Shown one piece after another: positions 20,302-22,351 of a DNA stretch of 37,322 nt. Below the pieces are notes generated by a model. It was not told the DNA's origin. It saw nothing but the letters and a program-made list of their open reading frames with translations, and did no database searches. The position numbers were made by a program, and so were the translations under genes. Numbering within the stretch: position 1 is the stretch's first letter; each line of letters starts with the position of its first letter. Source of the stretch: a virus (lineage: Duplodnaviria > Heunggongvirae > Uroviricota > Caudoviricetes); the IMG/VR virus record IMGVR_UViG_2908567220_000001, positions 1-37,322 of that record, one strand, 5' to 3'.

Positions 20302-21152
20302 ATGTCGACAAAGGCCTATTATTCTATGGATATCATAACAAAAATCATTGAAGACGCTCAAAAATTACAGTTATCCTCTGCAAATGAAGCTGAAACACGC
20401 CTTAAGATCATAGATCAAATACTCTTTGAAGTATTGAAATGGACTAGGGATGATGTATCGGTAGAAACTCGAGTTAGCGAAGATGGCGAGACTACTTTTG
20501 CTGATTATGTCATTAAAACAGCAAGTACTGCGTTTATAATTGAAGCCAAAAAAATTGGTCAGGCATTCGACACAAAACAATTCGATAGGAGACTGAAACT
20601 CAACAACAATAATCTTTCCGGTCCTTTTGGAGATGCCATAATTCAAGCAAGAGATTATTGTAGAAAACTGAGCATTCAATTTGCTGTTGTAACTAATGGT
20701 GAACAATGGGTTATATTCCCAGCAAATAGAACGGATCAAGTTGCATTCAACTCATCTTACGCAATTGTATTTAACAATTTACAAAGTGCACTTAAAGATG
20801 ACTATACAGAATTTTATGACTTATTATCAAGAAAAGCAGTTATAAACTCTAGCCTTGAAGTTACTTTATTAGGCAACAGGGAAGATCAAATAGAAGAAAG
20901 ACGCTTAAAAAATACAGTCCGTAAAAGTATCTCTTATGATGCAAAGAATCCAATATACCCATTAGTCGAAGAAGCAATTATCACTTCATTTTCAGATACA
21001 ATAACAGAAATCGACAATGATCTTTTTGAAAGATGTTATGTAAATACTCCTGACAGGATGAAATTTGATAGGCGTATTAATATGCACATCTCAAAAAGTC
21101 AACACCTCTTTAGTACGGCGCCTATAAGACCGATGCAAAAAAGAGATGCTAA
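20302..21152 (+). pseudogene. 5' fragment of IS5-disrupted gene: HsdR-N-like PD-(D/E)xK nuclease domain
   Basis: AT-rich ORF; motifs ETRLKIIDQILFEVLKW, FADYVIKT, FIIEAKK, QFAVVTNGEQWVIF; frame runs into IS5 and stops 9 codons inside it. Confidence 0.75.
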
Positions 21153-22347
21153 GGAAGGTGCGAACAAGTTCCTGATATGAGATCATCATATTCATCCGGA
21201 GCGCATCCCAGAGGGACATCATGAGCCATCAACTCACCTTCGCCGATAGTGAATTCAGCACTAAGCGCCGTCAGACCCGAAAAGAGATTTTCCTCTCCCG
21301 CATGGAGCAGATTCTGCCATGGCAGAATATGACCGCTGTCATCGAGCCGTTTTATCCCAAGGCGGGCAATGGCCGACGGCCCTATCCGCTGGAGACCATG
21401 CTGCGTATTCACTGCATGCAGCATTGGTACAACCTGAGCGACGGTGCCATGGAAGATGCCCTGTACGAAATCGCCTCCATGCGCCTGTTTGCCCGATTAT
21501 CCCTGGATAGCGCCCTGCCGGATCGCACCACCATCATGAATTTCCGCCACCTGCTCGAGCAGCATCAACTGGCCCGTCAATTGTTCAAGACCATCAATCG
21601 CTGGCTGGCCGAAGCAGGCGTCATGATGACCCAAGGCACTTTGGTGGATGCCACCATCATTGAGGCACCCAGCTCTACCAAGAACAAAGAGCAGCAACGC
21701 GATCCGGAGATGCATCAGACCAAGAAAGGCAATCAGTGGCACTTTGGCATGAAGGCCCACATTGGTGTCGATGCCAAGAGTGGCCTGACCCACAGCCTAG
21801 TCACCACCGCGGCCAACGAGCATGACCTCAATCAGCTGGGTAATCTGCTTCATGGAGAGGAGCAATTTGTCTCAGCCGATGCCGGCTACCAAGGAGCGCC
21901 ACAGCGCGAGGAGCTGGCCGAGGTGGATGTGGACTGGCTGATCGCCGAGCGTCCCGGCAAGGTAAAAACCTTGAAGCAGCATCCGCGCAAGAACAAAACG
22001 GCCATCAACATCGAATACATGAAAGCCAGCATCCGTGCCAAGGTAGAGCACCCGTTTCGCATCATCAAGCGGCAGTTCGGCTTCGTGAAAGCCAGATACA
22101 AGGGGCTGCTGAAAAACGATAACCAACTGGCGATGTTATTCACCCTGGCCAACCTGCTTCGGGTGGACCAAATGATACGTCAGTGGGAGAGATCTCACTA
22201 AAAACTGGGGATAACGCCTTAAATGGCGAAGAAACGGTCTAAATAGGCTGATTCAAGGCATTTACGGGAGAAAAAATCGGCTCAAACATGAAGAAATGAA
22301 ATGACTGAGTCAGCCGAGAAGAATTTCCCCGCTTATTCGCACCTTCC
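21153..22347 (+). mobile_element. IS5 insertion sequence (1195 bp), CTAA target-site duplication
   Basis: Terminal inverted repeats GGAAGGTGCGAACAAG (21153-21168) and CTTATTCGCACCTTCC (22332-22347); CTAA at 21149-21152 and 22348-22351; contains a 326-aa transposase. Confidence 0.95.
21221..22201 (+). CDS. insH: IS5 transposase (DDE)
   Basis: 326-aa ORF inside the IS5 boundaries, begins [35 protein letters not shown]... Confidence 0.95.
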
Positions 22348-22351
22348 CTAA

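Follow-up and report, generated by a model that had tools for sequence, protein, structure and literature searches.

The 37,322-nt window analyzed here (IMG/VR record IMGVR_UViG_2908567220_000001, positions 1 to 37,322) is a full-length Rac-type lambdoid prophage of Escherichia coli. It carries a complete insertion sequence (IS) of the IS5 family, an ISKpn26-type isoform, inside a gene predicted to encode a fusion of a nuclease and an AAA+ NTPase. Our analysis argues strongly that the element inserted at a CTAA site of this prophage cargo gene, that the outcome is a null allele, and that this allele has since been inherited vertically. As such, the insertion is an ordinary case of insertional inactivation that follows already-known IS biology and leaves the understanding of IS5 unchanged. 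Its value lies in pointing to a rare, strongly conserved nuclease–AAA+ gene without assigned function in prophage cargo hotspots.

A complete ISKpn26-type element between two copies of CTAA

Direct reading of the sequence and a script both delimit an element of 1195 bp between two copies of CTAA, at window positions 21153-22347 (Table 1). An earlier note on this DNA had described a complete IS5 with both 16-bp terminal repeats and a CTAA duplication at 21149-22351, an interval that corresponds exactly to the element plus the two copies of the duplication, and the completeness of the element is confirmed. Its 16-bp ends read GGAAGGTGCGAA(C/T)AAG and its length is ~1195 bp, as in IS5. The two arms are complementary at 15 of 16 positions, and both termini are identical to those of IS5A of E. 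coli K-12 MG1655. Because K-12 IS5A has the same ends, the single mismatch between the arms represents the native state and is no sign of decay.

The only long open reading frame (ORF) in the element encodes the transposase, which matches NCBIfam transpos_IS5_4 (E=8e-110; 366.7 bits against a cutoff of 140), Pfam DDE_Tnp_1 (E=4.5e-35; 121.7 bits) and DUF772. The element thus shares with IS5 (IS5A of K-12, transposase gene insH) and ISKpn26 a length of 1195 bp, identical termini, one ORF for a 326-residue DDE transposase and a 4-bp Py-T-A-Pu duplication. It differs from K-12 IS5 by 64 mismatches and 2 gaps (94.5% DNA identity) and by seven amino acids in the transposase (319 of 326 residues identical to InsH). 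The last differing position is 1012, and the final 183 bp are identical. In contrast, annotated copies elsewhere in E. coli match it with 100% identity over the full 1195 bp; these carry the RefSeq label "IS5-like element ISKpn26 family".

In the convention of ISfinder, isoforms share more than 90% identity in DNA or more than 95% in protein. By these measures of sequence identity the element counts as an isoform of IS5, for which "ISKpn26-type IS5 isoform" is an apt name and canonical IS5 is not. The designation IS5 in the earlier note therefore stands at the level of the family, by transposase, ends and length, and at 94.5% identity the element would be better described as an isoform than as the K-12 IS5 itself.

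The target consensus of IS5 is Py-T-A-Pu, and CTAA is among the documented targets (PMC5493358). Here, CTAA is found on either side of the element and once at the empty site. The disrupted gene holds 40 Py-T-A-Pu sites, 11 of which are CTAA, and with its high AT content it is typical IS5 target DNA (PMC5493358).

Both flanks of the element belong to a single gene

When the element and one CTAA are removed in silico, positions 20302-21152 and 22352-23975 join in an open frame of 2475 nt that encodes 824 residues. A megablast search of 5426 complete E. coli genomes retrieved this restored frame from eight of them, in each case as one uninterrupted piece with 99.4-100% identity. Seven of the eight annotate the gene as "P-loop NTPase fold protein" of 816 residues, with a start corresponding to the ATG at window position 20326. 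The intact protein is WP_045170235.1, and residue numbers of the 816-residue RefSeq form are converted to those of the 824-residue frame by adding 8.

Intact alleles at a distance of 1 to 4 substitutions occur in a few other E. coli strains, where they sit in the same slot of Rac-type prophages. The best match, PCP06235, occupies this slot with a single nucleotide difference in 2475 (G1306A). Aligned to PCP06235, the two sequences that flank the element in the window overlap by exactly 4 bp in subject coordinates (12848-12851), where one CTAA is present. This exact overlap implies a simple insertion with a 4-bp duplication. Judged by sequence, the flanks of the element are the two halves of one gene. 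The uninterrupted allele that the earlier note had proposed to seek in related prophages was found, and the finding it had named as fatal to its reading, flanks that belong to unrelated genes, was not obtained. The locus also holds a lesson for annotation, as two "hypothetical" ORFs beside an IS are the halves of a single gene.

In E. coli C8 (NZ_CP010125.1, locus 6001-8473) the allele is split into two coding sequences, both annotated "hypothetical protein". It contains two 1-nt homopolymer deletions, A6 to A5 at nucleotide 879 and T7 to T6 at nucleotide 1108. The resulting frameshifts may reflect an independent inactivation or sequencing error; since both fall in homopolymer runs, C8 was set aside as unreliable evidence of a second independent inactivation. 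Two further genomes, NZ_CM129869.1 and NZ_CP126934.1, each have a second, partial match to the gene besides the full-length copy.

Distribution and age of the interrupted allele

The IS junction was found in none of the 5426 complete RefSeq E. coli genomes, a set to which the source record does not belong. An exact-sequence look-up of the truncated product (284 residues from ATG 20326) returned four NCBI assemblies. These are CP024978.1, whose first 37.3 kb are the window, and GCA_022976335.1, GCA_001615295.1 and GCA_001615305.1, three drafts whose contigs stop within the IS. In all four, the junction is 100% identical to that of the window. An assembly artefact was considered and rejected, since the same junction is present in three independent short-read assemblies.

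On these sequences, the distribution is most simply explained by one insertion event inherited within a lineage. The earlier note had called the insertion recent. This is a reasonable description, as the ends, the duplication and the transposase are intact and neither half of the gene has decayed further; yet enough time has passed for the event to appear in four assemblies.

Consequences of the insertion

The element lies at codon 284, about 22 codons upstream of the Walker A motif. In the structural model this position falls within the helix ahead of the first strand and the P-loop of the AAA+ core. An insertion upstream of Walker A would uncouple the nuclease from the NTPase and create a null allele. 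In the sequence of events that we propose, an ISKpn26-type element would have transposed into a CTAA site of the AT-rich cargo gene and separated the nuclease from the NTPase. The remnants would be a nuclease-only ORF of 292 residues and an NTPase/C-terminal piece without a usable start before the P-loop, and the interrupted allele would then have been passed on vertically to the strains behind the four assemblies.

The 292-residue ORF had been described in the earlier note and is present: the 5' fragment stays open for nine codons into the IS (KEGANKFLI) before a stop, and it keeps the whole nuclease domain and the native upstream region. On the other side, the frame of the 3' fragment is open from 22305, and the GTG at 22524, likewise pointed out before, is the first and only ATG, GTG or TTG available. 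This codon corresponds to residue 342, downstream of Walker A (306-314), so that its product would be no working NTPase.

The earlier note had further suggested that the 3' fragment could be transcribed outward from IS5, and this part is not upheld. A simple scan, which is a weak negative, revealed no sigma-70-like promoter pointing outward from the right IS end, and the nearest promoter-like sites, at 22570-22597 and 22747-22775, are both downstream of GTG 22524. No terminator-like hairpin was found by scan on the + strand between 22201 and 22524, which leaves read-through from the co-oriented transposase gene as the only obvious source of a transcript. In published cases of activation by IS5 (glpFK, lac), the 3' 177-bp region with its IHF site and A-tracts stimulates a resident promoter in a phase-dependent manner, and no promoter of the IS is involved (PMC2753651). 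The insertion studied here resembles those at glpFK, bglGFB, flhDC and fucAO in the type of element, in the CTAA-type target and in the orientation of the IS 3' end (IHF site, A-tracts) towards the downstream DNA. Those insertions, however, are located upstream of a resident promoter and switch on an intact operon, whereas the present one is inside a coding sequence and has neither a resident promoter nor a start codon upstream of the P-loop.

Predicted architecture of the intact protein

Profile matches and an AlphaFold model suggest that the intact protein is composed of an N-terminal PD-(D/E)xK nuclease of the HsdR-N/BpuSI type, a linker, an AAA+ NTPase similar to ORC/Cdc6 and STAND proteins, a winged helix and a helical C-terminal region. 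The N-terminal part matches Pfam HSDR_N_2 above the cutoff, and a restriction-endonuclease-like fold is predicted in a model of the nuclease fragment. Residues 291-454 match Pfam KAP_NTPase with 23.9 bits (cutoff 20), over profile positions 12-171 of 293 only. Matches to AAA_16, AAA_22 and nSTAND5 are below threshold (for nSTAND5, 22 bits against a cutoff of 34 bits). The structural matches include CED-4, Apaf-1, NLRs and EfAvs5; the best neighbours are Cdc6/ORC and not STAND proteins. In the AlphaFold model, the C-terminal part forms a winged helix and a short helical domain. Many KAP proteins have transmembrane helices inserted in the P-loop domain. The AlphaFold model contains no obvious membrane hairpin; a membrane-topology prediction was not run. 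A profile search of PDB sequences gave no solved relative below E=0.02.

At least 594 relatives were scored in a database search, and the full-length ones among those listed are nearly all 811-844 residues long. Their sources are Serratia, Hafnia, Pseudomonas, Vibrio, Shewanella, Endozoicomonas, Kerstersia and Sideroxydans, as well as many metagenomes. With hundreds of members, the family varies little in length (about 815-830 residues) and extends over Gammaproteobacteria and beyond. Invariant positions across 35 family members (48-87% identical to the E. coli protein) include D60...E73-x-K75 of the nuclease, G298-T306 (Walker A) and D433-N434-x-D436-Q437 (816-residue numbering). A tblastn search of 50,697 deposited phage genomes produced no match, and IMG/VR holds four near-full-length homologues (100%, 100%, 47% and 45% identity).

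Comparison with known defence systems

There is a parallel in domain order with the Avs/AVAST STAND proteins. Like these, the product of the disrupted gene is predicted to be one polypeptide with an N-terminal PD-(D/E)xK nuclease as effector domain, followed by an NTPase tentatively placed in the ORC/STAND type and a winged helix; prophage or hotspot location is a further likeness, as are the structural matches to CED-4, Apaf-1, NLRs and EfAvs5. It differs in being much shorter (816-824 residues), in its sub-threshold nSTAND5 match and in having Cdc6/ORC proteins as nearest structures. Moreover, the C-terminal repeat sensor of Avs proteins was not detected, with no TPR or other repeat among the Pfam matches and no match to a PADLOC Avs model.

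Old of phage P2 is likewise a single-protein fusion of ATPase and nuclease and a prophage cargo, located in the P2 gpA–gpQ hotspot where a Serratia homologue of 88% identity also sits. Old combines an ABC-type ATPase with a Toprim nuclease, whereas here an AAA+ NTPase is joined to a PD-(D/E)xK domain in the reverse order and with unrelated folds. Reve is a single-gene ATPase/KAP P-loop system of P4 hotspots (NAR 2026, PMC13586616). The disrupted-gene protein also scores with the KAP_NTPase profile; Reve was compared by description only, and no nuclease domain is mentioned for it. N-terminal nuclease effectors of the Mrr_cat or BpuSI_N type have been described in P4 hotspots (Rousset et al. 2022). 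A type I HsdR subunit does not fit, as the motor is AAA+ and ORC/Cdc6-like and not an SF2 helicase, and the gene stands alone, without hsdM or hsdS, in the contexts examined.

Genomic context of the gene and its homologues

In the window, the disrupted gene is the lone + strand gene between a - strand DUF977 gene, which forms the end of the replication module, and - strand DUF1367, DUF1364 and DUF1133 genes. Its GC content is 34.7%, against 49.9% for the window. The gene is probably a laterally acquired cargo gene. The DUF977 gene is present in 4127 of the 5426 genomes, the cargo gene in eight. All five prophages that we sampled carry a different cargo in the slot adjoining the DUF977 gene, between the replication module and the nin/hokD region. 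These cargos are a RelA/SpoT-domain protein, a SMEK-domain protein with a methyltransferase, an ABC-three-component system with DUF2326, a dNTP (dATP/dGTP) pyrophosphohydrolase, and small unknown genes. The slot looks like a lambdoid cargo/defence hotspot.

Homologues are found in comparable places. The 88%-identical Serratia homologue is flanked by gpQ (portal) and gpA (replication) in a P2-like prophage, an interval that is the P2 old/tin defence hotspot of Rousset et al. (PMC9122126). In an unrelated lambdoid prophage, a homologue with 47% identity follows a replication initiator and a Ren-like exclusion gene and precedes a Doc-like toxin gene and Q. The Pseudomonas homologue is at the cargo end of a prophage, that of Endozoicomonas in an island rich in mobile elements (integrases, IS elements, a group II intron), that of Vibrio between two corticovirus-like elements, and that of Marinomonas next to toxin–antitoxin genes. 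Enrichment in hotspots is thus seen in a small sample of eight homologue contexts. No conserved partner gene was found in the homologue contexts examined, the gene being alone in each.

Because the gene and its relatives are found in variable slots for prophage cargo, among them the P2 old/tin hotspot, a role in defence is plausible, and the genomic context backs the term "candidate defence gene" used in the earlier note.

Two of these neighbourhoods have further features. The Serratia P2-like prophage also carries a separate gene for a 443-residue KAP-family NTPase (17827-19158), between a CI-type repressor and the integrase. In Vibrio europaeus (4241-5062 and 19560-20351), the homologue is flanked by two sets of small genes, each with a corticovirus-type P2 coat gene (Pfam P2_N/P2_C); this arrangement points to PM2-like prophages that are in tandem or next to each other.

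Alternative explanations

The interrupted allele might be more than a knockout. If the truncated 292-residue fragment were expressed and active, the insertion would have produced a new function instead of a null allele, namely a toxin or a nuclease that is constitutive or under altered control. The native 5' region, the full catalytic triad and the restriction-endonuclease-like fold predicted for the fragment speak for this. However, toxicity would be expected of an unregulated nuclease, whereas the stable inheritance of the allele makes strong toxicity of the fragment unlikely. STAND effectors generally need NTPase-driven oligomerization, as in Avs, Apaf-1 and NLR systems, where effector domains are generally activated in this way, and the fragment model has low confidence at residues 186-208 and in its helical tail. 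We consider an active fragment very improbable. A functional C-terminal protein made from GTG 22524 under the influence of the IS appears scarcely credible to us. Read-through from the co-oriented transposase gene could reach this codon, with no + strand hairpin found in between, and the intact IB activator region is oriented towards the fragment, but the product would lack Walker A, the frame offers no other start from 22305, and no clear Shine-Dalgarno sequence precedes the GTG. The simple scan showed no sigma-70-like outward promoter in the IS end, and the resident promoter on which IS5 activation depends (PMC2753651) has possible counterparts nearby only downstream of the GTG. A different proposal accepts the null allele and holds that its loss was selected, the intact nuclease–NTPase being costly, autoimmune or a barrier to useful phages or plasmids, so that a knockout by the IS was favoured. 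The rarity of the gene (8 of 5426 complete genomes), the two frameshifts in the C8 allele and the persistence of the knockout in four assemblies are in agreement with this. Against it, the C8 deletions are in homopolymers (A6, T7) and may be sequencing errors, the four assemblies are identical over the locus and amount to one event, and with a second IS in ydaT, IS hits in the AT-rich DNA of this prophage do not require special selection. Selected loss is in our view unlikely; the insertion would rather be a neutral or mildly beneficial loss, without regulatory rewiring.

As to the function that was lost, we lean towards a role of the intact product in defence or abortive infection. It would probably act by itself as an anti-phage or abortive-infection effector, its nuclease being licensed by the AAA+ module through NTP-dependent sensing or oligomerization. 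The gene might instead serve the prophage, with the ORC/Cdc6-like module controlling replication or recombination, or belong to a selfish restriction-like element; it does adjoin the replication module, and no named defence system was matched. Yet nearly all prophages with the same replication module lack the gene (DUF977 in 4127 genomes against eight), and homologues are also found where the replication genes are unrelated, in P2-like and Pseudomonas contexts and outside prophages. In addition, the gene runs against the direction of its neighbours and ends in a terminator-like hairpin of its own, and in other prophages the slot is filled with cargo of the toxin/defence type. We therefore regard a non-defence function as rather doubtful. 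Several observations nevertheless weigh against the interpretation that we prefer, insertional loss of a defence gene. Two homologues have housekeeping genes on both sides and no evident mobile element close by. No experiment ties the protein family to phage defence, and a literature search found neither a description of this protein nor an experimental anti-phage report. PHROGs lists the family (phrog_14719) with unknown function, and a PADLOC v2 scan of the restored protein identified no system, giving only weak partial matches (the N-terminal region of DrmMI, 1.3e-5, and PDC candidates). Finally, the isolates behind the four interrupted assemblies may be near-clonal and hence count as one event, and neither production of the 292-residue fragment nor selection for loss of the gene can be read from the sequence.

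The chances appear even that WP_045170235.1 (phrog_14719) is the first E. coli representative of a single-protein anti-phage system not yet described, in which an ORC/Cdc6-like AAA+ module would control a nuclease of the HsdR-N/BpuSI type without a repeat-bearing STAND sensor. The family is a cheap and well-defined candidate for phage-defence screens, and its motifs are clear enough for point mutants. The IS-interrupted allele offers a natural knockout, with an intact allele one nucleotide different in another strain; if the family does constitute a new anti-phage system, this allele would be its natural knockout.

Table 1 Features of the disrupted locus and of the second insertion sequence (window coordinates)
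Feature	Position	Strand	Basis
5' gene fragment, residues 1-283 of 824, with PD-(D/E)xK nuclease domain; RefSeq start is ATG 20326	20302-21152	+	
Nuclease catalytic motif FADYV (D68)...IEAKK (E81, K83)	20497-20553	+	Invariant in 35 family members
Chimeric ORF, 292 residues: 283 native residues and nine IS codons, then stop	20302-21180	+	
Left target-site duplication CTAA	21149-21152	.	Script; PCP06235 empty site holds one CTAA
Complete IS5-family insertion sequence (ISKpn26-type isoform), 1195 bp, 53.6% GC	21153-22347	+	100% identity to ISKpn26-annotated copies
Left terminal inverted repeat (IRL) GGAAGGTGCGAACAAG	21153-21168	+	Sequence reading, K-12 IS5A comparison
Intact DDE transposase gene, 326 residues, co-oriented with the disrupted gene	21221-22201	+	NCBIfam, Pfam
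3' 177 bp of the IS, matching the IS5 "IB" region (IHF site and A-tract bend); faces the 3' gene fragment	22171-22347	+	Identity to K-12 IS5; function taken from PMC2753651
Right terminal inverted repeat (IRR), reverse complement GGAAGGTGCGAATAAG	22332-22347	-	Sequence reading, K-12 IS5A comparison
Right target-site duplication CTAA	22348-22351	.	Sequence reading
3' gene fragment, residues 284-824: predicted AAA+ NTPase, winged helix and helical C-terminal region; in frame with the 5' fragment after excision	22350-23975	+	
Walker A P-loop GTVGAGKTT, residues 306-314	22416-22442	+	Alignment
GTG-start ORF, 483 residues, start at residue 342, without Walker A	22524-23975	+	
Walker B-like motif FLVVDNVDQ, residues 437-445	22809-22835	+	Alignment
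GC-rich hairpin straight after the stop codon, 14-pair stem, terminator-like	23976-24007	.	Terminator scan
Second IS, IS3 family, 1310 bp, inside ydaT (toxin YdaT family)	27162-28471	-	PCP06235 has empty site
GAT 3-bp duplication of the IS3-family element	27159-27161 and 28472-28474		
IS3-family orfB	27204-28094		
ALIL frameshift pseudoknot of the IS3-family element	28020-28136		
IS3-family orfA	28091-28417		

The prophage and a second insertion sequence

Synteny with PCP06235 identifies int, xisR, ralR (with the RalA small RNA), recET, kilR, sieB, racR and ydaSTUV in the prophage, together with nin-like genes and lysis and head genes. The IS3-family element in ydaT is a second IS in the same prophage, which fits a strain whose IS elements are active. 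Given its presence, IS hits in this prophage need no special explanation.

The RalA antitoxin small RNA of the RalR/RalA type I toxin–antitoxin pair is located at 35587-35766 on the - strand (Rfam, 219 bits), as expected for Rac. Two prophage tRNA genes, tRNA-Gly(TCC) and tRNA-Thr(TGT), are found at 17713-17866 on the - strand, between the nin-like and the lysis genes. The early region has 98.6-99.8% identity to the PCP06235 prophage, whereas the lysis/late region at 13515-17447 has only 85-88% and much of the head region is unaligned, a contrast that points to mosaic exchange between Rac-type prophages.

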